A stretch of 64,000 nt of DNA from Kofleriaceae bacterium (GCA_041389965.1 JAWKQV010000015.1:111041-175040); one strand, 5' to 3'; counted from the first letter of the stretch, positions 19,711 through 33,209 are shown. A program made the numbers and translations. Notes: generated from the sequence alone by a model not told the origin.

Positions 19711-21705
19711 GTGCGCTGCGCGGTCGTGACCTGCGTGCTGGTCGGGCTCGCCGCCTGCGCGCCGCCGCCGCGGCCGCTGGCGCCGTTGCCGAGCGCCGCC
19801 TACGCCCACTACCTGCGCGGCCGCGCCGCGTTCTTCGAGGGCGACTACCGGCTGGCCATCCCCGAGCTCGAGCTGGCCCGCGCCGCGGCGCCCGATCAGG
19901 CCGGCATCGTCATCGCCCTGGCCCAGGCCCAGGCGCGCGATGGCCGCGCCGAGGCTGCGCGCGCGACCATCGCCGCCGCGGTGGCGCGCTTCCCGGGCTC
20001 CCCCGAGGCGTGGCTGGCCGCCGGCGAGCTGCACGCGCAGCAGCGGCGCCCGGCTGCCGCCGTCGCGGCGTTCGCGCGCGCGCGGGCCCTCGATCCCGCC
20101 CTGGTGCCGGCGTACCTGGGGCTGGCGGCGGCCCAGACCCAGGCCGGCGATCCGGCGGCAGCGGAGCGGACCTACCGCTCGCTCGTGGCCCAGGTGCCCG
20201 ACCGCCCCGAGGGTCACTGGCAGCTCGCGCAGCGGGCGCTGGCGGCCGGCGCCGACGCCGCTGCCGAGCCCCACCTGATCCGCGTGGTCGAGCTCGACCG
20301 CGATCACCTCGAGGCGCGCCGCGCGCTGGCTGCGCTCGACGCCCGCACCGGCCGCTTGCCGGCGGCCATCGCCGAGGCCCAGGCGGCCTTCGGTCGCAGC
20401 GGCGCCGATCTGGCCGTCGGCGAGGATCTGTTCTGGCTGTACCTCGAGGCCGGCGACCGGCCGGCCGCCCTGGCGGTGCTCGAACCCTACGGCGGCGGCG
20501 ACCGGCTCGACGACCGGCTGCGCGTGGCGGCGCTGTGGGCCGCCGTCGGCGAGGTCGACCAGGCGCGGGCGATCGTCGTCGGCGCGGCGCGAGATGGCGC
20601 CGGGGCCGCCGGCGCGCGGGTCGCGGCCGAGGCGGCGCTGGCGGCGGGGCGGCTGGCCGAGGCGATCGCCACCGCGGACGGCGCGGCGGCTGGCGCCAGC
20701 CGCGACGACCGGGTCGGGCTGACGGCGGTGGCGGCCTGGGCCGAGCTGGCCGACGGCGCGCGGCGGGCCGACGCGGTGGCGGCGCGGCTCCGCCAGGCGC
20801 TGGCCCAGGCCCCCACGGCGCCTGCCCTGGTCGAGCTCGAGGCCGAGCGGCTGCGGCGGACCGGGGCGGTCGCCCAGGGTCGGGCGGTGCTGGTCGCCGC
20901 GGTGCGCCGCCAGCCACGCTCGTCGGCGCTGGTGCTGGCCTGGGCCGACTTCGAGCGTCGCGCCGGCGACCTGGCGCGGGCCCGCGCGCTCCTCGACAAG
21001 GTGCTGGCCGCCACCCCGGCGGAGCCCGAGGTCCAGGCCCGCGCCGCCGCGGTGCGGGTCGAGGCCGGGGTCGAGCTGGCCCGGGCCGGGGCGCTGCTCC
21101 TCGCGGCCCGTCGGCAGGCGCCGGGCGACCCGACGATCCTCGACGGGTGGGGCTGGTTCCGTCGGGCCATCGGCGATCGCGCCGGGGCCCAGCGCGCGAT
21201 CGGGCGCGCGCTGCTGATCGCCCCGCTCGATCCGGTGATCCTCGATCACGCCGCCACCCTGGCCCTGGAGCGCGGCCAGCGCGCCACCGCGGCGCGCTTG
21301 TGGACCCGCGCGCTGGCGGTGCCGACGCCGCCCGAGCTGGCCGCCCGCGTGCGCGCGCAGCTGGCCCCGATCGGCGCGACCCCGTGTTACCTTGACCCGA
21401 CCATGACGATGACCTGGCTGGCCCGTTTCGCCGTCGGCAGCGTGTTCGTCACCGCGGCGTGCGCGAAGACCCCGAGCAAGGGCGACTGCGAGAAGCTGCT
21501 GTCCCACCTGATCGACCTCGAGGCCAAGGCGGGCGGCGCCGACAAGCAGCCCAAGGCCGAGCTCGACAAGCAGAAGCAGGCCATCTCCGACTACGCGGTG
21601 GGCCAGAAGTTCATCGAGAACTGCACCCAGAAGACGCCGCGCAAGGTGGTCGCCTGCGGCCTGGCCGCCCAGGACGCCGACGCGGTCGCCGCGTGTGACA
21701 AGTAG
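19711..21705 (+). CDS. TPR-repeat lipoprotein (Ala-rich); C-terminal ~100 aa resemble an independent small lipoprotein
   Basis: GTG start with MRCAVVTCVLVGLAACAPP (lipobox), then many Ala-rich TPR-like repeats. An in-frame internal sequence MTMTWLARFAVGSVFVTAACAKTP at 21402 looks like a second lipoprotein signal followed by a Lys-rich domain. No stop separates the two. Confidence 0.55.
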   Translation: MRCAVVTCVLVGLAACAPPPRPLAPLPSAAYAHYLRGRAAFFEGDYRLAIPELELARAAAPDQAGIVIALAQAQARDGRAEAARATIAAAVARFPGSPEAWLAAGELHAQQRRPAAAVAAFARARALDPALVPAYLGLAAAQTQAGDPAAAERTYRSLVAQVPDRPEGHWQLAQRALAAGADAAAEPHLIRVVELDRDHLEARRALAALDARTGRLPAAIAEAQAAFGRSGADLAVGEDLFWLYLEAGDRPAALAVLEPYGGGDRLDDRLRVAALWAAVGEVDQARAIVVGAARDGAGAAGARVAAEAALAAGRLAEAIATADGAAAGASRDDRVGLTAVAAWAELADGARRADAVAARLRQALAQAPTAPALVELEAERLRRTGAVAQGRAVLVAAVRRQPRSSALVLAWADFERRAGDLARARALLDKVLAATPAEPEVQARAAAVRVEAGVELARAGALLLAARRQAPGDPTILDGWGWFRRAIGDRAGAQRAIGRALLIAPLDPVILDHAATLALERGQRATAARLWTRALAVPTPPELAARVRAQLAPIGATPCYLDPTMTMTWLARFAVGSVFVTAACAKTPSKGDCEKLLSHLIDLEAKAGGADKQPKAELDKQKQAISDYAVGQKFIENCTQKTPRKVVACGLAAQDADAVAACDK

Positions 21706-21756
21706 CGGCGTGTGACAGTAGCGGCGTGTGACACGTAGCGGCGGGGCGTCGGGCCG

Positions 21757-22815
21757 CTACGCCGGCGCGCGCAGCGGCGGGGCGGCGAGCGCGCAGGCCG
21801 CGGCCGCTTGCCCGATGGCCGCGCTGGCGGTGACGCCGTGGCCGCCGAGCCCGGCCACCCACAGCCACCACGGGCGGTCCGGGTCGAGCGCGATGAGCGG
21901 CAGCCCGCCGTCGGCGTACGTGCGCTGACAGGCCCAGGCCCGCTCGATCGGCACCGCGGCCAAGGTCGCCGGCAGCCGGGCCCGCAGCCGCACGCGCACC
22001 TCGGGATCGACGGTGACGTCGCCGGGCGCGGTCGCGTCGTGGTCGCACGCGCTGGCCATGACGCCGCCCGGCGCCGGCCGCACGTACCACTCGCCGGCGT
22101 CGACGTGCCACACGATCGGCGCGTCGTCGACGGTGAGCCGCAGGGAGAACAGGTGGCGGCGCCGGGCGGTGAAGGCACCGGCCACGCCGGCCAGCGCGCC
22201 CAGCGCTCCCGACCACGCGCCGCCGGCGGCGATCACCAGCGCGGCGGACAGCGGGCCGCGCGCGGTGGCCAGGTGGGCCCGGTCGCCGTCGTGGCGGATC
22301 GCGGTCACGCCGGCGTCGCACAGGTAGCGCACCCCGCGCCGGCGCCCGCCGTCGACGTAGCCGGCGGTGAGCGCGTCGAGATCGATGCAGCCGTCGTCGG
22401 GGAACCACAGCCCGCCGTGGTCGACCTCGAGGCCGGGCCACCGGGCCGCCACCTCGGCCGCGGTCACCGGGACGCACCGCAGCTGGTGCCGGGCCGCCAG
22501 CGCGGCCAGCGCCGCCGGGGCCTGGGTCAGCAAGATCGCGCCGCGGTCGTCGACCAGCGGGCGGGGCGAGAAGCCGGTCGGCGGTTGGCGCAGCCAGCGG
22601 GCGCCGGCGCTGGTCCAGGCGGTCCAGGCGTCGTCCTCGGCCAGGGCCCGGCACATCGCCGCGTTGTGGCTCGACGCGTGGGCGGCCAGCCGCGACTCCC
22701 GCTCGAGGACCACCACGTCGCGGCAGCCGGCCTCGGCCAGCGCCCACGCCGTGGCCAGGCCGGCGAAGCCGCCGCCGACGATGGCGACGCGGGCGTGGGG
22801 CGGGAGGTCATCCAC
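21757..22815 (-). CDS. FAD-dependent oxidoreductase (DAO / glycine-oxidase-like family)
   Basis: GTG start at residue 237 of ORF 21757..23523 gives MDDLPPHARVAIVGGGFAGLATAWALAEAG (Rossmann GxGxxG). The upstream 236 aa of the ORF are antisense junk to the LTD gene. Confidence 0.6.
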   Translation of the reverse strand: MDDLPPHARVAIVGGGFAGLATAWALAEAGCRDVVVLERESRLAAHASSHNAAMCRALAEDDAWTAWTSAGARWLRQPPTGFSPRPLVDDRGAILLTQAPAALAALAARHQLRCVPVTAAEVAARWPGLEVDHGGLWFPDDGCIDLDALTAGYVDGGRRRGVRYLCDAGVTAIRHDGDRAHLATARGPLSAALVIAAGGAWSGALGALAGVAGAFTARRRHLFSLRLTVDDAPIVWHVDAGEWYVRPAPGGVMASACDHDATAPGDVTVDPEVRVRLRARLPATLAAVPIERAWACQRTYADGGLPLIALDPDRPWWLWVAGLGGHGVTASAAIGQAAAACALAAPPLRAPA

Positions 22816-22932
22816 GGGCGCGGCTTTACCGCGGACGATCGCCCACGGCAACGCCCGGGCGACATCGCCGCGGCGGCGCTGCGGCAACCCAGGCGTTGAA
22901 CCGGGGCGGCCGGCACCGTACAGTGACCCGCA

Positions 22933-23535
22933 GTGCAAAGGCGCCTCCTCGTGTTCGCCCTGGCCAGCCTCGCGAGCGCCTGCGTCGCCGAGGTCGAGCC
23001 CGAGATCTGTCCTGCGGTCGGGGCCGGCGACCTGGTGGTGTCGGAGCTGCGCGGCAACCAGAGCGGCACCTACGGCGAGTGGATCGAGCTGTACAACCAC
23101 GGCGCCCAGGCCATCGACCTGCGCGGCCTGCACCTCGAGGTCCGCGCCCTCGACGGCAGCGGTCTGGTCACCATCCTGGTGCGCCGGCCGCTCACCGTGG
23201 CCGCCGGCGACTACGTGGTGCTCGGCGCGTTCCCCGACGACCAGCGGCCGGCCCACGTCGACTACGGCTGGCACCCCGACGTGCTCAACTCCGACGGCAG
23301 CATCAAGCACCTGCCCGACGCCGGCGCGCTGGCGGTCACCGCGTGCGGCGCCGTGGTCGACCGCGTGGTGTGGAACGACCTGCCGTCCGATGGCACCTAC
23401 GCGCTGGGCCTGATGCCGCCCGACGCCACCGGCAACGACGCGGCCACCGCCTGGTGCACCGACGCCGTCGACGACGATCCCACCGCCCCCGGCCTGCCCG
23501 GCACCCCTGGCGCGAGCAACCACCCATGCCCATGA
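22933..23535 (+). CDS. Lamin-tail-domain (LTD) lipoprotein
   Basis: Lipoprotein signal VQRRLLVFALASLASAC. LTD signature GEWIELYNHGAQAIDLRGLHLEV, ending ...GTPGASNHPCP. Confidence 0.7.
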   Translation: MQRRLLVFALASLASACVAEVEPEICPAVGAGDLVVSELRGNQSGTYGEWIELYNHGAQAIDLRGLHLEVRALDGSGLVTILVRRPLTVAAGDYVVLGAFPDDQRPAHVDYGWHPDVLNSDGSIKHLPDAGALAVTACGAVVDRVVWNDLPSDGTYALGLMPPDATGNDAATAWCTDAVDDDPTAPGLPGTPGASNHPCP

Positions 23536-24620
23536 TCACCCGCCCCGCGCACCCGCCCGGACGCCTCCGCCCGCTGGTCGCCGCCCTGGCGCTGACCTTC
23601 GTCGCGTGCCAGCCCCCCGGCGCCGCGCGCTACAGCCGGGCCCAGGCCCAGTCCTCGCTCAAGAAGCTCAGCGCCCCCGGCGTGGTGCTGGGCGAGTTCC
23701 ACCTGACCAAGGTGGTCGACGGCGACACCATCCGGGTCGACGGACTCGACAGCTCGCTGCGCCTGCTGGGCATCGACACCGAGGAGACGTTCAAGAACGA
23801 CGCCGATCGGCGCGGCGCCGAGGGCGACTTCCTCGCCTACCTGGCGGACAAGCGCCACGGCGGCAAGCACCCGGTCAAGGCCGCCACCCCGCTGGGCGAG
23901 GACGCCAAGCACTTCGCCATGGCGTTTTTCGGCGAGCACCAGAAGGTCCGCATCGAGCGCGACATCCCCCAGGAGATCCGCGACCGCTACGACCGCTACC
24001 TGGCCTACGTGTTCGTCGAGAAGGGCGGCAGGTGGGTCAACTACAACGTCGAGTGCGTGCGGGCCGGCATGTCGCCGTACTTCACCAAGTACGGTTTCTC
24101 GCAGCGCTTCCACGCCGACTTCCTGGCCGCCGAGGCCGAGGCCAAGGCCGCCGGGATCGGGATCTGGGATCCCACCAAGCAGCACTACCCGGACTACGCC
24201 GAGCGCGCGCCGTGGTGGAACGCCCGCGGCGAATTCTTGGCCCGGTTCCAGCCCCAGATCGATCACGACCCCGACTTCATCGTGCTCACCCACTGGGACT
24301 CGATGAAGAAGATCGAGGACCGGCTCGGCAAGGAGGTCGCCATCCTGGCCACCGTCGGTGACGTCAAGCTGGGCGATCGCGGGCCGACCAAGGTCATGCT
24401 GTCGCGCAAGCAGCGCGGCGACTTCCCGCTGGTGTTCTTCGACAAGGACGTGTTCGCCAGCTCGGGCATCGCCGACTGGAAGGGCGAGTTCGTCGTCGCC
24501 AAGGGCGTCGTGACGACGTATGTCAACAAGTACACGAAACGGAAACAATTCCAGATCGTCGTCGATCGCCCGGGCCAGATCATCCTATCTCCGATCCCTG
24601 GGCTGACGCTGCCGCAGTGA
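23526..24620 (+). CDS. Thermonuclease (staphylococcal-nuclease/SNase-like) lipoprotein with C-terminal extension
   Basis: ATG at 23526 overlaps the LTD gene end and is in frame with ORF 22896..24620. N-terminus MPMITRPAHPPGRLRPLVAALALTFVAC (lipobox). SNase motifs: KVVDGDTIRVDGLDSSLRLLGIDTEE. Confidence 0.75.
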   Translation: MPMITRPAHPPGRLRPLVAALALTFVACQPPGAARYSRAQAQSSLKKLSAPGVVLGEFHLTKVVDGDTIRVDGLDSSLRLLGIDTEETFKNDADRRGAEGDFLAYLADKRHGGKHPVKAATPLGEDAKHFAMAFFGEHQKVRIERDIPQEIRDRYDRYLAYVFVEKGGRWVNYNVECVRAGMSPYFTKYGFSQRFHADFLAAEAEAKAAGIGIWDPTKQHYPDYAERAPWWNARGEFLARFQPQIDHDPDFIVLTHWDSMKKIEDRLGKEVAILATVGDVKLGDRGPTKVMLSRKQRGDFPLVFFDKDVFASSGIADWKGEFVVAKGVVTTYVNKYTKRKQFQIVVDRPGQIILSPIPGLTLPQ

Positions 24621-24654
24621 CCACGGTCATCGCCACCGGGCCCGGGTCCGTGCG

Positions 24655-26391
24655 ATGATTCCGGCCATGCGTCGTCTCGCCTGGTCTCGCTCGCGCTTCC
24701 TCCTCGCCGCGCTGGTCCTGGGAGGCGGCGGCGCCTGCGGCCCCAGCGATCCCGCCCCGACCTGCGACGGGCTGGTGGCTGGCTCGCTGGTGATCTCCGA
24801 GATCCAGGCCGACTACGACGCGCCCACCGGGGCCAGCGGGGCCGACACCGGCCACGAGTGGTTCGAGCTGTACAACGCGTCGTCGGCGCCGATCGAGCTC
24901 GAGGGCGTCGTCCTCGAGCACATGCGCCCCAGCGAGGTGGTCGGCAAGACCCACACCATGGGCCCGGTGTCGATCCCGGCCGGTGGTTACCTGGTCCTGG
25001 GCAACGTCATCACCGAGACCGCGCCGGCCTACGTCGACTACGGCTACGGCGCCGACCTGGGCGACCTGTTCAACACCAACGGCGGCAAGCTGCGGGTGTC
25101 GTGCGGCGGCGCGGTCGTCGACGAGGCCATCTACGACAGCGTCTCGCCCGGCCACACCCGCCAGCTCGACGGCAAGCAGGCGCCCGACTACCTGACCAAC
25201 GACTCCCAGACCGCCTGGTGCGACGCGGCCGAGGTCGCCGCCGACGAGTACGACCCGGCCAACTTCGGCACGCCGGGCGCCGCCAACCAGGAGTGCATGA
25301 ACGTCATCCCTGGCCAGTGCGACGACAACGGCACGCCGCGGCCGACGGTGGCGCCGGTCCCGGGCGACCTGGTCATCACCGAGGTGATGCCAGATCCGGC
25401 GGCGGTGGGCGACGCCACCGGGGAGTGGATCGAGGTGCTGGTCAACCGCGACGTCGACCTCAACGACGTCGGCGTGGCCACCGCGACCGGCACCCCGGTG
25501 CTGGTGTCGTCGTCGACCTGCGTGCGGGCCACCGCCGGCACCTACCTGGTGTTCGCCCGGTCGGCCGATCCGGCCATGAACGGCGGCCTGCCCCGGGTCG
25601 ATGGGACCACCGTCGCCCTGGCCAACACTGGCGGCGCCGTGCGCCTGGTCATGGGCGCCACCGAGCTCGACTCGATCGCCTGGCCCAGCGCGCGCAGCGG
25701 CAAGTCCATCCAGCTGTCGGCCGGCCTGTCGACGCCGGCCGACAACGACGTCGCCACCAACCTGTGCGACGGCGCGGCCGCCTACGGCGCCGGCGACCTC
25801 GGCAGCCCCGGCGCCGCCAACCGCGACTGCGGCGCCACCATGGCCAACATGTGCCTCGACGCCGGCACCGGCCAGATGCGCCCCATCGTCAAGCCCACCG
25901 CCGGCCAGCTGGTCATCAACGAGTGGATGCCGGACCCGATGCACGTCGGTGACACCGCCGGCGAGTGGTTCGAGGTGAAGGCCCTCGCCGACGTCGACCT
26001 CAACGGCCTCCAGGCCGGCGGCGCTTCGCTGGGCGCGACGCCGATCGTCCCGGCCAGCGGCGCCTGTGTGCCCCTGGCGACCGGTGGCCTGGCTGTGTTC
26101 GCCCGCGCCGCCGTGGCCAATGGTCTGCCGCCCATGGTCACCCTGGCCGGGACCTTCAGCTTCGGGTTGACCAACGGTCCGTCGAGCTTCCAGATCGGCA
26201 TCGACAACACCAACCTGTCGACCGCGACCTGGGCGGCGACCTCCACGCCTGGCGCGTCGTGGATGCTGGACACCGACGGTACGCAATGCACGGCGGCCGC
26301 GGCGGGCGTGACGGCGTACGCGAACGGGGCCATGCCTGGCTCCGACCGTGGCTCGCCGGGGGCGGTGAACAGCCCGCCCGAGTGCCCGTGA
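24655..26391 (+). CDS. Lipoprotein with three tandem lamin-tail domains (LTD x3)
   Basis: Lipoprotein signal LLAALVLGGGGAC. The three LTD cores are GHEWFELYNASSAPIELEGVVL, GEWIEVLVNRDVDLNDVGV and GEWFEVKALADVDLNGLQ, each followed by ...GSPGA(A/V)N..C. Confidence 0.75.
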   Translation: MIPAMRRLAWSRSRFLLAALVLGGGGACGPSDPAPTCDGLVAGSLVISEIQADYDAPTGASGADTGHEWFELYNASSAPIELEGVVLEHMRPSEVVGKTHTMGPVSIPAGGYLVLGNVITETAPAYVDYGYGADLGDLFNTNGGKLRVSCGGAVVDEAIYDSVSPGHTRQLDGKQAPDYLTNDSQTAWCDAAEVAADEYDPANFGTPGAANQECMNVIPGQCDDNGTPRPTVAPVPGDLVITEVMPDPAAVGDATGEWIEVLVNRDVDLNDVGVATATGTPVLVSSSTCVRATAGTYLVFARSADPAMNGGLPRVDGTTVALANTGGAVRLVMGATELDSIAWPSARSGKSIQLSAGLSTPADNDVATNLCDGAAAYGAGDLGSPGAANRDCGATMANMCLDAGTGQMRPIVKPTAGQLVINEWMPDPMHVGDTAGEWFEVKALADVDLNGLQAGGASLGATPIVPASGACVPLATGGLAVFARAAVANGLPPMVTLAGTFSFGLTNGPSSFQIGIDNTNLSTATWAATSTPGASWMLDTDGTQCTAAAAGVTAYANGAMPGSDRGSPGAVNSPPECP

Positions 26392-26876
26392 ACCTCGTCT
26401 GGCGCGCGGCAGCGGTGGTTGTCGTCGCGGCCACCGCGGCGTGTGGTAGCCCGGCCCCGACCTGCGGGCCGTCGTCGGGCGTGGTGGCGCGCGTGATCGA
26501 CGGTGACACCATCGACCTGGCCTCGGGAGAGCGCGTCCGCTACCTGCTCATCGACACCCCGGAGTCGACCAACGGCGCCACCGACTGCTACGGCGTCAAC
26601 GCGGCCCAGGCCAACCACGACCTGGTGCTGGGCAAGACCGTCGACCTGGTCTACGACGACGCCCAGTGCACCGACCGGTTCGGGCGCCTGCTGGCCTACG
26701 TCTCGGTCGACGGGGTCGAGGTCAACTCGCTCCTGGTCGAGCGGGGCTACGCCTGCTTCCTGTACATCCCGCCGGCCGGCACCGACCGCGAGCTGGAGTT
26801 CGAGAACCTCGAGCTCGCGGCCCGGACCTCGGGCCGCGGCATGTGGTCTGCTTGCGCGGTGGTGACATGCGACTAG
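26388..26876 (+). CDS. Thermonuclease (SNase-like) lipoprotein, second copy
   Basis: GTG at 26388 overlaps the upstream TGA and is in frame with the tail of ORF 25965..26876. N-terminus VNLVWRAAAVVVVAATAAC (lipobox). SNase motifs: VIDGDTIDLASGERVRYLLIDTPE. Confidence 0.7.
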   Translation: MNLVWRAAAVVVVAATAACGSPAPTCGPSSGVVARVIDGDTIDLASGERVRYLLIDTPESTNGATDCYGVNAAQANHDLVLGKTVDLVYDDAQCTDRFGRLLAYVSVDGVEVNSLLVERGYACFLYIPPAGTDRELEFENLELAARTSGRGMWSACAVVTCD

Positions 26877-29053
26877 TCCGTCTGCTGACGACCTGCACCG
26901 TCCTGGCCGCGCTGGCGGCGCCCGCGCTGGCGGCGCCCTACGAGGCCTTCATCGACGTCGAGACCCAGGAGGATCTCGACGACCTGTTGGCCAGCGGCGA
27001 GATCTCATCGGACACCTACGACGCGCTCACCGAGCTGCTGGGCCGCGGCGTCGATCTCGATCGCGCCACCCGCGAGGACCTCTACGCGCTGCCCAACCTC
27101 ACCTACGGCGAGGTCGACGCCATCTTGGCCTACCGCGAGCTGCAGAGGTTCGTGGCCAACCCGATCGATCTGGTCGCGGCCGGCGCGCTGTCCGAGCAGA
27201 AGCTCTTGGCCATCTCGGCGTTCTTGGTGGTCGGCGATCGTAGCCGTGGCGAGTACGCGCCGCGCGGCTGGGTGCGCGCCAACCTGCGCGCCGCCCAGGG
27301 CGACGATCGGCCGCCGCCGGTCGGCGTGCGGGCCCGGGTCATGCTCGGGCGCCGCATCACGGTGGGCGCCGCCGCCACCGACACCCGGCTGCGGCTGGGC
27401 CAGGTGGCGTGGGATCCCAACCGCGACGGGCTGGTGGTCGACGACGTCCACACCTCGCTCCACGTGCCCAAGCTGTTCGCGCGCTACCGCGGCGACACCG
27501 TCGACGTCATCGCCGGCACCTACCGGGTCGGTTTCGGCGAGCGCCTGACCTTCGACAACAGCAACGACTACACGCCCGACGGCATCTACTTCGACGACCA
27601 GCTGCACTACACGCCCGACCTGGCCCTGGCCTGCCGCGAGTCGACCGGCGAGCTGGCCGGCTCGCCGTGCAGCGGCGCGTTCGACTACGTCACGCCGGAC
27701 AACAAGTGGAGCGACGGGCTGACCGGCGTCGCCGCCGGCTCGAGCCACATCAGCGTCGGCGGCGGCTACCTGCAGGCCTACGGCTGGGGCAGCTACCAGC
27801 CCAAGAGCCTGTACCAGTACCAGCTGCTCGACCGCGCCGCCTGCGCCGACCCCTACGACGCCACCGATCCGGCCTGCGCCGCGCCGCCGGTGTTCGTGCG
27901 GCCGACCGGCGGCGACGCGCTGGCGCCGGCCGCCGCGGCGTCCTACCAGACGCTTCCCAACATGTACGCCGAGTCGCTGGTCGGCGGCCACCTGGCGTTC
28001 CACGCCGCCCGCCGCGACTACGTCGGGGTGACCGCCTACGGCGCGACCACCCGGTGGCTGGCCGCGGTGCCGCCCGACGTGCGGCTCGACTTCCAGGACT
28101 GGGCCCGGACGCCCATCGGCGGCCGCTACGGCGCCATCGGCGTCAACGCCAGCCTCGGCCGGGGCATCTACGACGCCACCGTCGAGGTGACCCGCAGCTT
28201 CGATCGTTCGCCCGACCGCACCGGCGCCATCGACGGCGGCGGCGGCTTCGGCGCGATCGCCCGGTTCACCCGGTCGGTGCGCAAGCGCGAGCTGGAGCTG
28301 TCGGCGCGTTACTACGACGCCAACTTCGACAACCCCTACGCCGGGCCGATCGCCGCCGACGACATCGTCGACGGGGTGCGGGCCCGCGGCGAGCACGGGG
28401 TCCGGGCCCGCTACACCGGCGTCCACGGCGTCGCCACCATCCGCGCCTCGCTCGATCTGTGGCGGGCCTACGTGCCCGAGCTCGACGGCTATCTGGCGCG
28501 GATCGACACCTACGCCCACCTCGACGTCCAGGGCTCGGACCAGCTCCGCTACGGCCTGTGGCTCGACTTCGCCGACAAGGACCTGGGCCAGAACGGGCTC
28601 GGCGAGTGCTACAGCATCCTCGTCGAGGACAACCAGCTGGCCAAGCAGTACGCCTGCCGCGGCATGCGGCTCAAGACCACGGCGCGGGTGCGCTACCAGC
28701 CGGCGCGGCGCCTGAGCCTGTTCGGCCAGGTCCAGCACGCCTGGCTCGACGACGCGCGCTACGACAGCAAGCGCCGGAGCGATCTGTCCGCCACCGTCGA
28801 GGCCACCTGGCGACAGGCCGACGACCTGCGGCTCAAGGCCCGGGCCCGCTACCTGTTCCAGGACGTCTCGGACAACACCTACCTCGAGCAATCGATCTGG
28901 GTCTACGGCGAGGCGGTCAAGCGCCTGCGCGAGAAGGACGCGCTCACCGTCCGCCTCGACCTGTTCACGTGGCTCGACGACCGCACCCGCACCGGCCTGC
29001 GCAGCCCGTCACCCGAGCTGCGCGGCCTGCTCGGCTACGTCGCGAAGTTCTGA
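26867..29053 (+). CDS. Outer-membrane beta-barrel-like protein with N-terminal ComEA-like helix-hairpin-helix DNA-binding motifs
   Basis: ATG at 26867 (MRLVRLLTTCTVLAALAAPALAAP, signal peptide) is in frame with ORF 26666..29053. HhH motif: ATREDLYALPNLTYGEVDAILAYRE. The long alternating amphipathic beta-strand-like C-terminal region ends in Phe (...LLGYVAKF), typical of OMPs. Confidence 0.55.
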   Translation: MRLVRLLTTCTVLAALAAPALAAPYEAFIDVETQEDLDDLLASGEISSDTYDALTELLGRGVDLDRATREDLYALPNLTYGEVDAILAYRELQRFVANPIDLVAAGALSEQKLLAISAFLVVGDRSRGEYAPRGWVRANLRAAQGDDRPPPVGVRARVMLGRRITVGAAATDTRLRLGQVAWDPNRDGLVVDDVHTSLHVPKLFARYRGDTVDVIAGTYRVGFGERLTFDNSNDYTPDGIYFDDQLHYTPDLALACRESTGELAGSPCSGAFDYVTPDNKWSDGLTGVAAGSSHISVGGGYLQAYGWGSYQPKSLYQYQLLDRAACADPYDATDPACAAPPVFVRPTGGDALAPAAAASYQTLPNMYAESLVGGHLAFHAARRDYVGVTAYGATTRWLAAVPPDVRLDFQDWARTPIGGRYGAIGVNASLGRGIYDATVEVTRSFDRSPDRTGAIDGGGGFGAIARFTRSVRKRELELSARYYDANFDNPYAGPIAADDIVDGVRARGEHGVRARYTGVHGVATIRASLDLWRAYVPELDGYLARIDTYAHLDVQGSDQLRYGLWLDFADKDLGQNGLGECYSILVEDNQLAKQYACRGMRLKTTARVRYQPARRLSLFGQVQHAWLDDARYDSKRRSDLSATVEATWRQADDLRLKARARYLFQDVSDNTYLEQSIWVYGEAVKRLREKDALTVRLDLFTWLDDRTRTGLRSPSPELRGLLGYVAKF

Positions 29054-29080
29054 CCGGGCGCCGCGCGGGCGTGGCCCGGA

Positions 29081-29671
29081 TCAGGCGGCCGGCGCCGGCG
29101 GCCCCTCGTCCTTGAGGCGGATGGGCCCGAAGTCGGCCGGCTTGTGGGGCACCGGGTGGTGCTCGGCGTAGAACGTCCGGATCCGATCCATGTCGGCGCG
29201 CACGTCGCCGGTCAGGTGGATGGGCGCGCCCATGCCCAGGCGCTTGCGCTTGTAGTCCATGTAGCCGGGGACCACCGGGACGTCGGCGCCGCGGGCGATG
29301 TGGTAGAAGCCCGACTTCCAGTGGGTCGACAGGCTGCGCGTCCCCTCGGGTGGGATGACCAGCCACAGGCGGTCGTGGGTGCGGAAGGCCTCGACCATGG
29401 TGTCGACGACGTTGTTGGCCTTGGACCGGTCGATGCCGATCGCGCCCAGCCGCTGCATGATCGGCCCCATCGGGCCGCGCAGCCAGTCGTCTTTGATCAT
29501 GAACGACATGTCGATGCCGGCGCTGGCCGCCATGGCCAGCATCAGCACCCCGTCCCAGTTGCTGGTGTGGGGCACGCCGAGGGCCACGCACTTGGCGACC
29601 GGCGGCACGGTGCCTTCGAGCTCCCAGCCGGCGAGACGGAGCAGGCGGGTGGCGAGCGGGTGCGGCTTCAT
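29081..29671 (-). CDS. Lysophospholipid acyltransferase (PlsC/YihG-like family)
   Basis: Internal Met (MKPHPLATRLLRLAGW...) of ORF 29081..30451 gives 196 aa. HX4D motif: VPHTSNWDGV. PEGTR motif: VIPPEGTRS. Confidence 0.7.
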   Translation of the reverse strand: MKPHPLATRLLRLAGWELEGTVPPVAKCVALGVPHTSNWDGVLMLAMAASAGIDMSFMIKDDWLRGPMGPIMQRLGAIGIDRSKANNVVDTMVEAFRTHDRLWLVIPPEGTRSLSTHWKSGFYHIARGADVPVVPGYMDYKRKRLGMGAPIHLTGDVRADMDRIRTFYAEHHPVPHKPADFGPIRLKDEGPPAPAA

Positions 29672-30076
29672 GGACCGGGATTGTGCCGGTCCGGGCCGGG
29701 CAGGCACGCCCCGGTGGCAACAATCTGCAAGCGCCGCCCGGTGGCCACACCGGGCCCCACGGCCGTGGCAGAGTCGACCTGGTCGGGCCACGCCGCCGGT
29801 CCATTGGTGGACCGAAGGATTTTCAGCCGGACGGAAATCCTGAACCATCGCAACGCTTCGGCACTTCCGGCGTGTCGCGCGGAGACCTACCCAGATGGAT
29901 GAGCTGACCACATCCGTCGTACCCATCGGCCGCCGCACCCGCGTCGGCGATCTGCCTGGCGAGCCCGCACCCGCGGCCGCGGGGCCCGCACCGATCCGCG
30001 GTGCCGGCCGGCGTGTCGCGCCGGCGCGGCCCGGCCCGGCTCGCGATCCGTCCACCCTCTGCACCGGGAGGTCCGC

Positions 30077-30835
30077 GTGACCCTGTTCGATGCCTCGCTG
30101 CAGTTCCCCACGGTGCTGTTCACCATCGGCCTGCTCATCGCGCTGGTGTACTGGCTGTTCGTGATCCTCGGCGCGCTCGACGTCGACCTGCTGGGCGGGG
30201 CCGACGACGTCACCGGCGCGCTCAAGGGCGGCGGCGAGGCGCTCACCGGCGGCGTCAAGGGCGCGGCCGAGATCGCGGGCGGCCACGCCGACGCCGGCGA
30301 CGCGCTGACCGGGGCCGCCAAGGGCAGCGGCGAGGCGGTCACCTCGGGCGCCGGTCTGTGGGCCTGGCTCGGGCTGACCTCGGTGCCGGTGACGGTATCG
30401 GCCTCGCTCATCATGCTGCTGGGCTGGTCGGGATCGGTGCTGCTGATGCACTACGGCACCGGCGCGGTGGGCCCGGTGCTGGGGGCGGTGCTGGCGCTGG
30501 CGGTGGTGCTAGCGGTGCTGCCGGTCGTCGGGCTGCTGGTGCGCCCGCTCAAGCCGGTGTTCGAGGTCAAGGTCGGCAAGCGCAACCGCGAGTACGTCGG
30601 CTCGACCTGCACCATCACCACCGGCCACGTCGACGACGGGTTCGGACAGGCCGTCCTCGAGGAGGGCGCCACCGTGCTGGTCATCCCGGTCCGGTGCGAC
30701 CGCGGCGGCGTGCTGCCGCGTGGGGCCCGGGCGCTGATCATCGACTTCGACGCCGCCCGCCACGCCTACCTGGTCGAGCCGGTCACCGAGCTTCTGGGCG
30801 CGCCGCCCGCCGGTGACGCCGGTGATGCCTCATAG
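30077..30835 (+). CDS. YqiJ/NfeD-like inner-membrane protein (DUF1449-like; OB-fold C-terminus)
   Basis: GTG start. TM helices (VLFTIGLLIALVYWLFVILG; LIMLLGWSGSVLL; VLGAVLALAVVLAVLPVVGLLV) are followed by a soluble domain VGSTCTITTGHVDDGFGQAVLEEGATVLVIPVRC, typical of NfeD/YqiJ partners of flotillins. Confidence 0.6.
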   Translation: MTLFDASLQFPTVLFTIGLLIALVYWLFVILGALDVDLLGGADDVTGALKGGGEALTGGVKGAAEIAGGHADAGDALTGAAKGSGEAVTSGAGLWAWLGLTSVPVTVSASLIMLLGWSGSVLLMHYGTGAVGPVLGAVLALAVVLAVLPVVGLLVRPLKPVFEVKVGKRNREYVGSTCTITTGHVDDGFGQAVLEEGATVLVIPVRCDRGGVLPRGARALIIDFDAARHAYLVEPVTELLGAPPAGDAGDAS

Positions 30836-30922
30836 CCGTCGGCCGACCGCACGGTCGTCGCGTCGTCTCGTCGTCTCGGGGGTCACGTTCGTGGCCGGCG
30901 CTGGCCGGCCGAGGAGTCTCGC

Positions 30923-33079
30923 ATGGACAAGCAGCTGCTCATCGCCGTCGTCGGCATCTCCGTGGTCGTCCTGTTCGGACTGATGGTGCTGATCGCCCGC
31001 ACCTTCCGCCAGGTCGAACAGGGTCGCGCCATGATCATCAACCGCCTGCGCGGCGAGCCCAAGGTGACCTTCTCGGGGTCGGTGGTGCTGCCGGTGGTCA
31101 ACAAGGCCGAGATCATGGACCTGTCGGTCAAGACCATCGACGTCGCCCGCCGCGGCAAGGACGGCCTGATCTGCGCCGACAACATCCGCGCCGACATCAA
31201 GGTCACGTTCTTCGTCCGGGTCAACAAGACCGTCGACGACGTGCTGCGGGTCGCGCAGTCGATCGGGTGCGCCCGGGCTTCGCAGCAGTCGACCCTCGAG
31301 GAGCTGTTCGCCGCCAAGTTCTCGGAGGCGCTCAAGACCGTCGGCAAGAAGATGGAGTTCGAGCAGCTCTACACCCAGCGCGACGTGTTCAAGGACCAGA
31401 TCATCGCGGTCATCGGCAAGGACCTCAACGGCTACGTCCTCGACGACGCCGCCATCGACTACCTCGAGCAGACGCCGATCGAGATCCTCGATCCCAACAA
31501 CGTCCTCGACGCGCTGGGCATCCGCAAGATCACCGACATCACCACGTCGGCCGCCATCGACACCAACCAGCTCAAGCAGAAGGAGCGGATGGAGCTGGGC
31601 AAGCAGAACCTGACCTCCGACGAGGCCATCTTCCGCTTCGAGCAGCAGCGGTCCGAGGCCGAGGCCAAGAAGAACAAGGAGATCGCGATCGCCAACGCCC
31701 GCGAGGAGAACGAGGCCAGCCGGTTCCGGCTCGAGGAGGAGAAGCGCACCCACGTCGACCGCCAGCGCGCCGAGGAGGCCATCCAGATGGCCGAGCAGGC
31801 CAAGCTGCGCGCGGTCCAGGTCAGCGAGCAGGGCCGGGTCCGCGAGGTCGAGGTCGAGAAGGTCCGCGTGGCCAAGGCCCACGATCTCGAGGAGGTCGTG
31901 CGCCGCCGCGAGGTCGAGCTGGGCCAGATCGAGATGGCCAAGGTGGTCGAGGCCGAGAAGCGCTCGATCGCCGACATCGTGCGGGCCCGGGTCGCGGTCG
32001 ACAAGACCGTCGCGGTCGAGGAGGAGGCCATCAAGGACCTGCGCACCGACGCCGAGGCCAAGCGCCACAAGCACGTCACCATCGTCAACGCCGAGGCGGC
32101 GGCCCAGGAGATCTTCATCAAGGACATCAAGAAGGCCGAGGCCGAGCAGCAGGTGGCGTCGGCCCACGCCAAGAAGCAGCTGATCCTGGCCGAGGCGGCC
32201 ATGGAGGCGTCCGACAAGGAGGCCCGCGCGGCGATCCGGCGCAGCGAGGGCACCCAGGCCGAGCACGCCGCGCCGGGCCTGGCCGCGGTGCGGGTCAAGG
32301 AGGCCGACGCGATCGCGCTGGAGAAGACCGGCATGGCCCAGGCCAAGGTCAAGGAGGCCCAGGTCCAGGTGGCCGACCGCGAGGGCGTGGTCGTGGCCGA
32401 GAACGTGCGGCGCAAGGCCATGGCCGAGGCGGCCGGGCGCGAGGCCGAGGCCGCGGCCATCGAGAAGACCGGCCTGGCCGAGGCGGTCGGGCTGCGCGAG
32501 AAGTTGTTGGCCGAGGTCACCGCCAAGGAGGCCGAGGCCGGCGCCATCGAGAAGCGCATGCTGGCCGAGGCCCACGGCCTGGCCCAGAAGGCCGAGGCGA
32601 TGCGCGCGCTCGAGGGCTCGGCCCGGGAGCACGAGGAGTTCCGGCTGCGGCTGGCCAACGAGCGCGAGATCGCGCTCGAGCAGATCAAGGCGCGGGTCGC
32701 GGTGTCCGACTCCCAGGCCAAGGTCATGGCCGAGGCCATGGGCAAGGCCGACATCAAGATCGTCGGCGGCGACGGCCAGTTCTTCGACCGCTTCGTGCGG
32801 GCGGTGTCCCTGGGCCAGGCGATCGACGGCGTGGTCGACAGCTCCGAGGTGGTGCGCGGCGCGCTGGGCGACCGGCTCACCAGCGGCTCGGGCGCGCTGG
32901 TGCAAGACCTGAAGGACGTGGTCGGCGCCGTCGGTGGCTCGGCGGCGAACCTGCAGCACCTGTCGGTGGCGGCCGCGCTGGCCGGGCTGATGGCCAAGGC
33001 CGATGAGCCGACCCGGGCCAAGCTGGCGAGCCTGCTCGAGCAGGCCAAGCAGCTGGGCCTCGACGCACCGACCCGGTGA
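30923..33079 (+). CDS. Flotillin family protein (SPFH/band-7 domain; YqiK/FloT-like) with long coiled-coil C-terminus
   Basis: N-terminal TM MDKQLLIAVVGISVVVLFGLMVLIA, then an SPFH core (RAMIINRLRGEPKVTFSGSVVLPVV...DNIRADIKVTFFVRV). It has extensive EA-rich coiled-coil repeats. GAGGAG RBS. Confidence 0.85.
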   Translation: MDKQLLIAVVGISVVVLFGLMVLIARTFRQVEQGRAMIINRLRGEPKVTFSGSVVLPVVNKAEIMDLSVKTIDVARRGKDGLICADNIRADIKVTFFVRVNKTVDDVLRVAQSIGCARASQQSTLEELFAAKFSEALKTVGKKMEFEQLYTQRDVFKDQIIAVIGKDLNGYVLDDAAIDYLEQTPIEILDPNNVLDALGIRKITDITTSAAIDTNQLKQKERMELGKQNLTSDEAIFRFEQQRSEAEAKKNKEIAIANAREENEASRFRLEEEKRTHVDRQRAEEAIQMAEQAKLRAVQVSEQGRVREVEVEKVRVAKAHDLEEVVRRREVELGQIEMAKVVEAEKRSIADIVRARVAVDKTVAVEEEAIKDLRTDAEAKRHKHVTIVNAEAAAQEIFIKDIKKAEAEQQVASAHAKKQLILAEAAMEASDKEARAAIRRSEGTQAEHAAPGLAAVRVKEADAIALEKTGMAQAKVKEAQVQVADREGVVVAENVRRKAMAEAAGREAEAAAIEKTGLAEAVGLREKLLAEVTAKEAEAGAIEKRMLAEAHGLAQKAEAMRALEGSAREHEEFRLRLANEREIALEQIKARVAVSDSQAKVMAEAMGKADIKIVGGDGQFFDRFVRAVSLGQAIDGVVDSSEVVRGALGDRLTSGSGALVQDLKDVVGAVGGSAANLQHLSVAAALAGLMAKADEPTRAKLASLLEQAKQLGLDAPTR

Positions 33080-33209
33080 CCCGGCGCTCGGCCCGCGCGA
33101 GGCGGGGTGGCCGGTGGCCCCACGGCGCCGGCGCCCCCCTCGGTCGTCCCCGAACTTCCGTGCCCGACGGCGCCTGCGCCATCGGCGCGCTCGTCCCTGC
33201 GAGGTCCCC

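Follow-up and report, generated by a model that had tools for sequence, protein, structure and literature searches.

Proteins in which lamin-tail domains (LTDs) are fused to nucleases have been described. ExeM joins an LTD, an OB region, a nuclease and a C-terminal sorting tail, and the roles of ExeM and Xds include extracellular DNA (eDNA) degradation, biofilm and nutrient acquisition; ExeM can clear extracellular DNA without its LTD (PMC6085458). A Ca. Izemoplasma protein likewise fuses nucleic-acid-binding, nuclease and LTD domains (PMC8289736). ComEA, the DNA receptor of natural transformation, binds DNA that has entered the periplasm (PMC3879209).

The window, meaning the whole stretch of 64,000 nucleotides of a Kofleriaceae (myxobacterial) genome that was analysed, carries five co-oriented, overlapping or abutting genes (g1 to g5) at 22933-29053 on the + strand. 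We found no publication describing this five-gene module. The gene order (LTD, SNase, 3xLTD, SNase, HhH-barrel), the common strand and the junctions are as the original prediction had them, and the features are as follows.

g1, 22933..23535, + strand: 200 aa, predicted LTD lipoprotein with one LTD at aa 31-148
g2, 23526..24620, + strand: 364 aa, predicted lipoprotein combining an SNase domain with an OB-like domain at the C-terminus
g3, 24655..26391, + strand: 578 aa, predicted 3xLTD lipoprotein
g3 LTD repeat 1, 24739-25299, + strand: from internal alignment with g1
g3 LTD repeat 2, 25300-25848, + strand: from the same alignment
g3 LTD repeat 3, 25849-26388, + strand: from the same alignment
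g4, 26388..26876, + strand: 162 aa, predicted minimal SNase lipoprotein
g5, 26867..29053, + strand: 728 aa, predicted outer-membrane protein with an HHH_3/ComEA-like domain and a beta-barrel
HHH_3/ComEA-like domain of g5, 27044-27226, + strand: aa 60-120

The start of g2 at 23526 lies upstream of the g1 stop at 23535, with a second candidate ATGA start at 23532, and a GC3 of 0.95 supports the g1 coding frame. Spacing between g2 and g3 is 34 nt, the GTG start of g4 at 26388 overlaps the g3 stop (GTGA), and the ATG of g5 at 26867 precedes the end of g4 at 26876. No nucleotidase, phosphatase or nucleoside transporter genes were found near the module within the window.

The predicted lipoproteins g1 to g4

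The products of g1 to g4 are predicted to be exported lipoproteins, lipid-anchored via a conserved Cys. Lipobox-like signals are present in g1 (LASAC, followed by VAEVE), g2 (FVAC), g3 (GGAC) and g4 (TAAC), and the lipobox Cys is kept in 41/45, 42/49, 55/57 and 63/66 of the respective homologues, as scored with a simple lipobox pattern; C28 of g2 is invariant in the g2 alignment. The four proteins may face the periplasm instead of the cell surface.

Both g1 and g3 are composed solely of lamin-tail Ig-like domains. The g1 LTD scores 37.6 bits against Pfam PF00932, above the GA of 34.3, and g3 scores 62.1 bits in two stretches. In isolation, g3 repeat 2 reaches only 24 bits, and repeat 3 is without a Pfam match and is recognised only through its alignment to the other repeats; in the internal alignment each g3 repeat terminates in G[TS]PGAxN..C. 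The repeat alignment shows three LTD copies in g3 against one in g1, as anticipated.

SNase matches (Pfam PF00565, GA 21) are 51.9 bits for g2 and 65.8 bits for g4. In g2, the SNase domain (aa ~57-215) is interrupted behind the catalytic Glu by an insertion of 25 aa and is followed by a long helix (224-247) and an OB-like C-terminal domain (aa ~250-354) of five strands plus a helix. Alignment to staphylococcal nuclease, checking the Ca2+ ligands D21, D40 and T41 and the catalytic residues R35, E43 and R87, gives a complete active site for g4 (DGDT, R-YLLI-DTPE, GR-LLAY) and for g2 (DGDT, LR-LLGI-DTEE, DR-YLAY), the latter invariant in 26 g2 homologues. Substitution of the catalytic Arg or Glu had been proposed as the mark of inactive nucleases, and both proteins keep all of these residues; g2 and g4 are predicted to be catalytically intact, Ca2+-type staphylococcal-nuclease enzymes. 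In some g4 homologues from relatives the D40 position is occupied by N, and in most relatives the barrel gene directly follows g4.

The two LTD-SNase pairs had been regarded as tandem duplicates, but close paralogy is confined to the LTD half of each pair. The LTD of g1 is clearly paralogous to the first repeat of g3 (34% identity, E 6e-24), but g2 and g4 align over 65 residues only, with 28% identity and E 0.002, and are no more than remote paralogues, such that a recent tandem duplication is not supported. Any duplication would be ancient, because g1 to g4 are each separately conserved across the family.

The g5 barrel and conservation of the module

An SPase-I signal (aa 1-22, ALA/A) begins g5, followed by an acidic SHOCT-like bihelix (aa ~33-59), the HhH-like domain, and a predicted barrel (aa 132-727, nt 27260-29050) with about 24-25 beta-strands. 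The protein ends in ...GYVAKF, and the final F is present in every relative examined, consistent with the original description of a barrel body ending in Phe. With a signal peptide, an antiparallel barrel fold and a C-terminal aromatic residue, g5 is modelled as an outer-membrane beta-barrel of the BAM type with roughly 24 strands. Its long loops bear three invariant Cys pairs, the N-terminal domain is strongly acidic (K+R 7 vs D+E 21), and lumen-facing positions in strands 1, 2, 19 and 22, as placed by a crude parity assignment, are Arg/Lys-rich, with many conserved. The best Foldseek matches of the barrel are the translocation-size barrels FimD, MtrB and SlpA. The features that mark TonB-dependent transporters or SusC (Plug domain, TonB box, TonB_dep_Rec barrel profile) were sought in g5; Pfam gives neither a Plug domain nor a TonB-dependent receptor, and a SusD partner is missing. 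At the sequence level g5 also bears no resemblance to the Slam/DUF560, BamA/POTRA or usher families.

The assignment of ComEA-type HhH motifs to g5 holds better for its family than for g5 itself. HHH_3 (PF12836) scores 16.6 bits in the whole protein and 21.7 bits in the isolated domain, both under the GA of 27, and the canonical G-hydrophobic-G hairpins are not seen; the first hairpin is LPNLT, not LPGIG, and is invariant in the close family. However, many close homologues pass HHH_3 in precomputed Pfam, more distant relatives score 42-55 bits and have LPG[IVM]T as the first hairpin, and a 61-residue alignment (E 0.0012) links the family profile to structure 8dss, a ComEA of the B. subtilis type. 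PsbU and T2SS GspK models are among the weaker matches, and the HHH_3 fold also occurs in non-DNA-binding proteins.

A search returned 796 representative g5-type barrel proteins (50% clustering), and synteny was assessed in 51 genome loci having at least 6.5 kb upstream of the g5 homologue. Homologues of g1 to g4 are all near the g5 homologue in 44 of the 51 loci, mostly in the same order; in four loci (L046, L049, L058 and L077) the g1-g4 block is inverted yet adjacent, and in 5/51 genomes the barrel gene has no partners within 10 kb. The carriers include Kofleriaceae, Nannocystaceae, Sandaracinaceae, Haliangiales and Enhygromyxa salina, and the flanking genes are conserved among close relatives only. 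Linkage of g1 to g5 is beyond chance, and the module is conserved across Myxococcota.

A second, marine Myxococcota clade encodes a PLDc_2/NucT-like lipoprotein, an HhH-barrel and a multi-LTD protein, in that order and with overlapping boundaries, in five distinct genomic contexts. Its nuclease, for which NucT-like is the best NCBIfam match, is non-homologous to SNase and occupies the SNase position, and its multi-LTD protein is homologous to g3 (BLASTP E 7e-15). Because this clade carries a different nuclease, the constant core consists of a nuclease, an LTD protein and the HhH-barrel; one further locus (L082) has barrel, LTD and SNase in that order. The multi-LTD protein is the most constant partner of the barrel, being adjacent in all arrangements seen. 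The synteny in 44/51 loci and the second clade with its unrelated nuclease strengthen the idea, present from the start, that the five genes make up a single system directed at DNA. We note that the multi-LTD proteins of the second clade have tails that are hydrophobic and then RRRR, matching TIGR03901 (MYXO-CTERM) exactly C-terminally at 16.6 and 15.9 bits vs a cut-off of 20; these MYXO-CTERM-like tails concern the second clade, and g1 and g3 of the window are predicted N-terminal lipoproteins.

Proposed function and alternative explanations

We propose that g1 to g5 probably form a co-transcribed envelope module that captures and degrades extracellular (or periplasmic) nucleic acid and is conserved across Myxococcota. 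In every case the partner enzymes are nucleases, drawn from two unrelated families, pointing to DNA as the shared substrate, and the inference that the module degrades DNA outside the cytoplasm is well supported. The LTD proteins and the barrel would constitute a constant membrane platform, on which interchangeable nucleases of the SNase or PLD/NucT type would cut the DNA held there to oligo- or mononucleotides. The products could supply phosphorus, nitrogen, carbon or nucleotides and would plausibly derive from prey or from eDNA of sediment or sludge. The barrel might either hand DNA fragments to the periplasm, where its HhH domain would take them over, or hold its lipoprotein partners and expose them on the cell surface. 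In soils, sediments and sludge, where Myxococcota are abundant predators, extracellular DNA makes up a large reserve of phosphorus and nitrogen. To our knowledge, it is poorly understood how DNA or its breakdown products cross the outer membrane of diderms by routes other than the competence pilus machinery. The module offers a defined and widespread genetic handle on DNA acquisition by diderms, with an uncharacterised family of barrels bearing ComEA-like domains encoded together with LTD proteins and a nuclease; moreover, the LTD partners are conserved as stand-alone proteins and not as enzyme appendages, and provide a way to learn the role of the bacterial lamin-tail domain.

The part played by the barrel can be read in two further ways, both possible and both unlikely in our estimation. 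It could act chiefly as a platform or export device that anchors or flips the LTD and nuclease lipoproteins to the surface (cf. Slam, usher, SusC), leaving the HhH-like domain for protein contacts. The constancy of the multi-LTD neighbour, the suggestion of surface display in the MYXO-CTERM-like tail of the second clade, the fold similarity of the barrel to ushers, the hairpin Gly lost in g5 and the known HHH_3-type folds of non-DNA proteins are all consistent with such a device, but the HhH is canonical in distant relatives, the enzymes are invariably nucleases, and similarity to the Slam, BamA and usher sequence families is lacking. Rather unlikely also is a role as a nucleic-acid conduit, with its own periplasmic ComEA-like domain as a ratchet or receptor, giving pilus-independent import of oligonucleotides or DNA. 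The large barrel with its FimD, MtrB and SlpA matches, the ComEA-type HhH domain and the Arg/Lys-rich lumen-facing positions argue for a conduit, as does a locus (L083) in which a separate ComEA-like gene with 2xHHH_3 is immediately upstream of the barrel. There is also a precedent in Riemerella, where transformation without a pilus depends on a beta-barrel together with a lipoprotein and an HhH protein of the periplasm (PMC8459023). However, the odd predicted strand count (25) leaves the topology ambiguous, the lumen may be obstructed by the disulfide-bearing long loops or by the acidic N-terminal domain, non-specific nucleases would leave mainly small products for transport, and the TonB-dependent receptor encoded immediately downstream in locus L086 could be the importer. 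The conduit spells out what the original prediction called a DNA-binding porin. In its strongest form, which we consider doubtful, the HhH-barrel family would be an outer-membrane nucleic-acid translocon not recognised before, working without a type IV pilus or secretin, fed by LTD proteins and interchangeable surface nucleases and importing DNA or oligonucleotides with a periplasmic ComEA-like ratchet.

The same biochemistry could have a purpose other than the nutritional one proposed, namely remodelling of the cells' own eDNA matrix (in biofilm, swarm or fruiting-body dispersal), destruction of foreign DNA at the envelope, or preparation of DNA for natural transformation, although we think this improbable. 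The second-clade enzyme best matches NucT-like nucleases, which are linked to transformation in Helicobacter, and RecBCD genes are immediately upstream in loci L091 and L092. Envelope nucleases of the SNase and ExeM/Xds types have documented functions in biofilm and NET escape (PMC6085458). Yet the RecBCD neighbourhood is limited to a single context, no competence genes (comEC, dprA, pil) adjoin any locus examined, and non-specific endo- or exonucleases disfavour delivery of intact DNA. Far less credible is that the genes are chance neighbours or serve anti-phage defence in the cytoplasm. The defence reading is suggested by PADLOC, whose candidate model PDLC01096, 'SNc+LTD', matches g2 (58.9 bits) and g4 (52.9 bits) and by its name also offers a precedent for the fusion of the two domains, but no further PADLOC family was matched; chance association and defence alike are contradicted by the synteny in 44/51 genomes and by the second clade with its different nuclease. 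All five proteins have predicted export signals (lipobox Cys or SPase-I sites) and g5 is a predicted outer-membrane barrel, and therefore they would not be expected to act on cytoplasmic phage DNA.

Comparison with known systems

Several described systems share components or organisation with the proposed nucleic-acid-degrading module. In fold, Ca2+ ligands and catalytic Arg/Glu/Arg, g2 and g4 resemble the staphylococcal nuclease/thermonuclease family (Nuc, NucI, EcnA, YncB), but they score 57-62 bits vs equivalog cut-offs of 180-250, are predicted lipoproteins within a conserved five-gene module, and in g2 include the insertion and OB-like domain. ComEA shares the HHH_3 domain with g5 but is a small soluble or inner-membrane-anchored protein, whereas in g5 the domain is at the N-terminus of a barrel of ~600 residues and is preceded by the acidic SHOCT-like segment. 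The FimD/PapC ushers, MtrB and Deinococcus SlpA give TM-scores of only 0.3-0.4 with g5, have no sequence similarity to it and carry other accessory domains.

At the level of gene sets, Sus-like loci also group binding and hydrolytic lipoproteins with an outer-membrane barrel for one polymer, and L086 even adds a TonB-dependent receptor; this likeness is organisational and not homology, as g5 lacks a Plug, a TonB-dependent-receptor match and a SusD partner. In Riemerella anatipestifer, the outer-membrane barrel RA0C_RS04915, the adjacent lipoprotein RS04920 and the HhH protein RS02645 similarly handle external DNA, but the barrel is of the CarboxypepD_reg type, DUF5689 is present, the HhH protein is separate, there are no nucleases in the operon, and the mechanism proposed there is speculative (PMC8459023).

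ExeM of Shewanella oneidensis and Xds of Vibrio cholerae share with the module an envelope LTD, an OB-type region, a sugar-non-specific nuclease and a lipid or sorting anchor (PMC6085458). The ExeM NCBIfam model NF033680 matches the g1 LTD region only, at 12.2 bits vs a cut-off of 1300, and Pfam finds no EEP domain in the module proteins. ExeM and Xds are single polypeptides that contain a nuclease of the EEP family and carry a GlyGly-CTERM tail, whereas the module consists of separate, predicted N-terminally lipidated proteins whose nuclease is SNase, or PLD in the sister clade, always accompanied by a dedicated barrel of the outer membrane.

Gene set, flanking regions and conservation

The original prediction of a co-oriented series of genes with overlapping or abutting junctions is confirmed, with five plus-strand genes arranged as follows.

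22933-23535, + strand: g1, lipoprotein with a lamin-tail domain (LTD), 200 aa
23526-24620, + strand: g2, SNase lipoprotein, 364 aa
24655-26391, + strand: g3, lipoprotein with three LTDs, 578 aa
26388-26876, + strand: g4, small SNase lipoprotein, 162 aa, GTG start
26867-29053, + strand: g5, predicted outer-membrane barrel with a ComEA-like helix-hairpin-helix (HhH) domain, 728 aa

Three of the junctions overlap (g1/g2 by 10 nt, g3/g4 by 4 nt, and g4/g5 by 10 nt), and g2 and g3 are spaced by 34 nt. The left neighbor is a divergent FAD-dependent oxidoreductase gene and the right neighbor a convergent acyltransferase gene, and g1-g5 therefore form a self-contained co-oriented unit. The window is ∼74% G+C, true reading frames in this genome have a GC3 of 0.89-0.95, and the long antisense ORFs across the g1-g5 region were rejected as compositional artefacts on the basis of third-codon-position G+C. 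We note that a 588-aa minus-strand ORF over g1 (21757-23523) is such a high-G+C artefact, and that the true FAD-oxidoreductase (DAO, 164.7 bits) begins near 22860, leaving a short divergent intergenic stretch before g1. A promoter and terminator scan of 22500-29400 gave no promoter-like sites and a single terminator-like site, inside g2, which is the level seen with shuffled sequence, and an Rfam search over 21500-30000 gave no families. PADLOC reported no defence systems, its sole match being a candidate model named 'SNc+LTD'. Pfam searches of the flanking genes in the window found none tied to nucleotide catabolism or competence, nor are there nucleotidase, phosphatase, or transporter genes among the flanking genes near g1-g5.

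Two other regions of the window were noted. Past the convergent acyltransferase gene, on the same strand as g1-g5, lie three genes that look like a separate conserved trio, and which are not kept beside the nuclease module in its relatives; the other region encodes one protein.

within 30077-38516, + strand: NfeD-like membrane protein, no Pfam match
within 30077-38516, + strand: SPFH/flotillin-like protein, 718 aa
within 30077-38516, + strand: ∼1770-aa protein with DUF3686 ('ATPase involved in DNA repair', 608 bits), DUF7902, and AAA
9716-11986, + strand: 756-aa protein with eCIS_core, SLT transglycosylase, PG_binding_1, and Peptidase_M15 domains

From its domain content, this last protein has a predicted architecture that is unusual, that of a multi-domain cell-wall hydrolase or toxin-like protein.

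Searching one genome per species gave 276 g5 relatives, and the top 80 of these 276 loci all belong to Myxococcota (Kofleriaceae, Nannocystaceae, Sandaracinaceae, Haliangiales, and the isolate Enhygromyxa salina SWB005). Homologues of all four partners are present in 44 of the 51 loci that have at least 6.5 kb upstream of the g5 homologue, mostly in the order and on the strand seen in the window; in 4 of the 51 the block formed by g1-g4 has been inverted, or shifted by a few kilobases, yet is still adjacent, and in 5 of the 51 partners are absent within 10 kb. Flanking genes are common to the closest relatives only. In 37 of the 80 loci (e.g., L004, 13054-13983) the barrel gene is followed, ∼1 kb away, by a tandem Usp gene, and ferredoxin and uncharacterised genes also recur downstream; all are absent from the window, and we take them as lineage synteny, not as module parts. 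One close relative (L001, 7701-9926, minus strand) has an unrelated lipoprotein gene between the 3xLTD and small SNase genes, which shows that an insertion need not disperse the module. When HMMER was run in full on 1.84 billion representatives, 796 g5 family members were returned (E ≤ 0.001).

The LTD and SNase lipoproteins

Each of g1-g4 has an N-terminal signal peptide and a lipobox-like motif, and the Cys at the end of this motif is kept in nearly all homologues from other genomes, in agreement with their original description as lipoproteins. The Pfam matches likewise bear out the domain assignments, with g1 and g3 being LTD proteins (37.6 and 62.1 bits) and g2 and g4 being SNase family members (51.9 and 65.8 bits). 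Internal alignment of g3 recovers the three predicted LTD repeats, each closed by G[TS]PGAxN..C, and g1 is similar to the first of these. The proposal that the LTD and SNase genes are tandemly duplicated pairs holds only in part: the LTD genes g1 and g3 are the clearer paralogues (34% identity), but g2 and g4 share 28% identity over 65 residues and are remote paralogues only, and a recent duplication of the pairs was therefore rejected. Any tandem duplication is thus at most ancient.

Alignment of g2 and g4 with staphylococcal nuclease shows that DGDT, Arg35, Asp40-Thr41, Glu43, and Arg87 are all present, and the Ca2+-ligand and catalytic positions are invariant in 26 g2 homologues. The catalytic Arg and Glu, whose substitution would have suggested inactive enzymes, are intact in both proteins. 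In other lineages (loci L016, L022, L033, L034, L046, and others), g4 homologues have Asn in place of the Ca2+-ligand Asp40 (RYLLVNAPE or RYLMVNTPE), which may reflect changed metal dependence or lower activity; the g4 of the window retains Asp. Two additional features of g2 are a 25-residue insertion after the catalytic Glu and a C-terminal part of ∼150 residues that matches no Pfam family. The AlphaFold model of this C-terminal part (pLDDT 79.4) has a long helix followed by a beta1-3/helix/beta4-5 unit, a predicted OB-fold topology.

The HhH-barrel protein

A hypothetical protein from the MAG of a Kofleriaceae bacterium (phylum Myxococcota) matches the g5 product at 100% identity. The g5 protein starts with an SPase-I type signal (ALA|A) and continues with an N-terminal domain that is acidic and helical, and then with beta-strands up to a C-terminal Phe. 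The AlphaFold model (23-sequence alignment, pLDDT 76.7, pTM 0.75) has 25 strands in residues 132-727, a count based on DSSP and strand parity in a predicted model, and ambiguous. The best Foldseek matches among PDB structures are the largest barrels (SlpA, FimD, and MtrB), yet with TM scores of 0.3-0.4, and therefore the fold class is clear with no close solved relative. These results favor the predicted beta-barrel ending in Phe over a soluble or periplasmic protein, and Pfam searches of the barrel part gave no family. Three invariant Cys pairs (256/268, 326/337, and 581/597) are within long loops of the model. By a crude strand-parity assignment, the lumen-facing residues include 29 K+R versus 21 D+E, with Arg/Lys runs on strands 1, 2, 19, and 22, which is no more than suggestive. 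The N-terminal domain (aa 24-125) is acidic, with 7 K+R and 21 D+E, and we speculate that it could plug the Arg-rich lumen until displaced by DNA.

The ComEA-type HhH assignment of this domain does not stand for g5 alone, where HHH_3 scores 16.6 and 21.7 bits, below the Pfam gathering score of 27, but it is supported at the family level. The g5 family profile matches ComEA structure 8dss (E 0.0012, positions 60-120), many close homologues have a precomputed PF12836 match, and distant family members score 42-55 bits for HHH_3. The first hairpin is LPNLT in g5, LPG[IVM]T in distant members, and LPGIG in ComEA; a hairpin glycine is lost in g5. The HHH_3 fold occurs also in proteins without DNA binding. 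A weak SHOCT-like bihelix (19.1 bits versus a gathering score of 27; aa ∼33-59, window 26966-27043) precedes the HhH domain; this segment is strongly acidic, and its motif, E-Y-E-V/A-x-I ... G-x-I-S-x-x-x, is still found in low-GC relatives as distant as P0352.

Nuclease exchange, proposed role, and known systems

The most informative result is the contexts of distant g5 members. In MAGs of a second clade, of marine Myxococcota, the order is PLDc_2 lipoprotein, HhH-barrel, and multi-LTD protein (600-700 aa), with overlapping gene boundaries, and this arrangement recurs in five different genomic neighborhoods. Among NCBIfam models the PLDc_2 lipoprotein best matches the nuclease NucT, and the multi-LTD protein, a g3 homologue (E 7e-15), ends in a hydrophobic stretch and RRRR scoring slightly below the MYXO-CTERM cut-off. 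Other orders are barrel, LTD, and SNase (L082), and barrel and LTD with no more (L088). The constant core is therefore the barrel, an LTD protein, and a nuclease of either of two unrelated families. Exchange of the nuclease for a non-homologous one while the context stays fixed is strong evidence that the whole module acts on nucleic acid. Three single neighborhoods are also noted: a 174-aa ComEA-like protein with two strong HHH_3 matches (140 bits) directly upstream of a distant HhH-barrel homologue (L083, 1793-2317) and, in the second clade, a TonB-dependent receptor directly downstream of the module (L086, 8726-10687) and co-oriented recC-recB-recD directly upstream of the genes for the PLD nuclease, the barrel, and the LTD protein (L091/L092, 1-7457).

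Sequence and structural models show, in conserved co-location, four lipoproteins predicted to be exported and lipidated, intact SNase active sites, LTD repeats, and a predicted barrel with a ComEA-like domain. In the role we propose, the LTD proteins and the barrel would together make up a platform in the membrane where the nucleases would degrade DNA, and possibly RNA, with the products feeding the cell. Nutrition is the default purpose, over matrix remodelling or transformation, because competence genes are absent beside the loci examined and the enzymes are non-specific. The barrel may let fragments through and carry its own periplasmic receptor for them, or, about equally likely, may hold or export the lipoproteins, and g1-g4 could face the periplasm. 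A DNA role for these parts is weakened by the acidic N-terminal domain of g5 with its one lost hairpin glycine, and by ExeM, where DNA clearing proceeds without the LTD (PMC6085458).

In the tests made, g5 did not group with the ComEA, TonB-dependent transporter, usher, or ExeM families, and literature searches gave no published account of either an HhH-barrel protein or the five-gene set; a minority possibility for the barrel is a new kind of outer-membrane channel for nucleic acid. The module reading fits known envelope nucleases: in ExeM/Xds a single polypeptide has LTD, OB folds, nuclease, and a lipid-sorting tail (PMC6085458), nucleic-acid-binding, nuclease, and LTD domains come together in a protein of Ca. 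Izemoplasma from 'DNA-degradation loci' (PMC8289736), and the PADLOC model has the same pairing of SNase with LTD. We therefore class the module with envelope eDNA-nuclease systems, as a variant of them.
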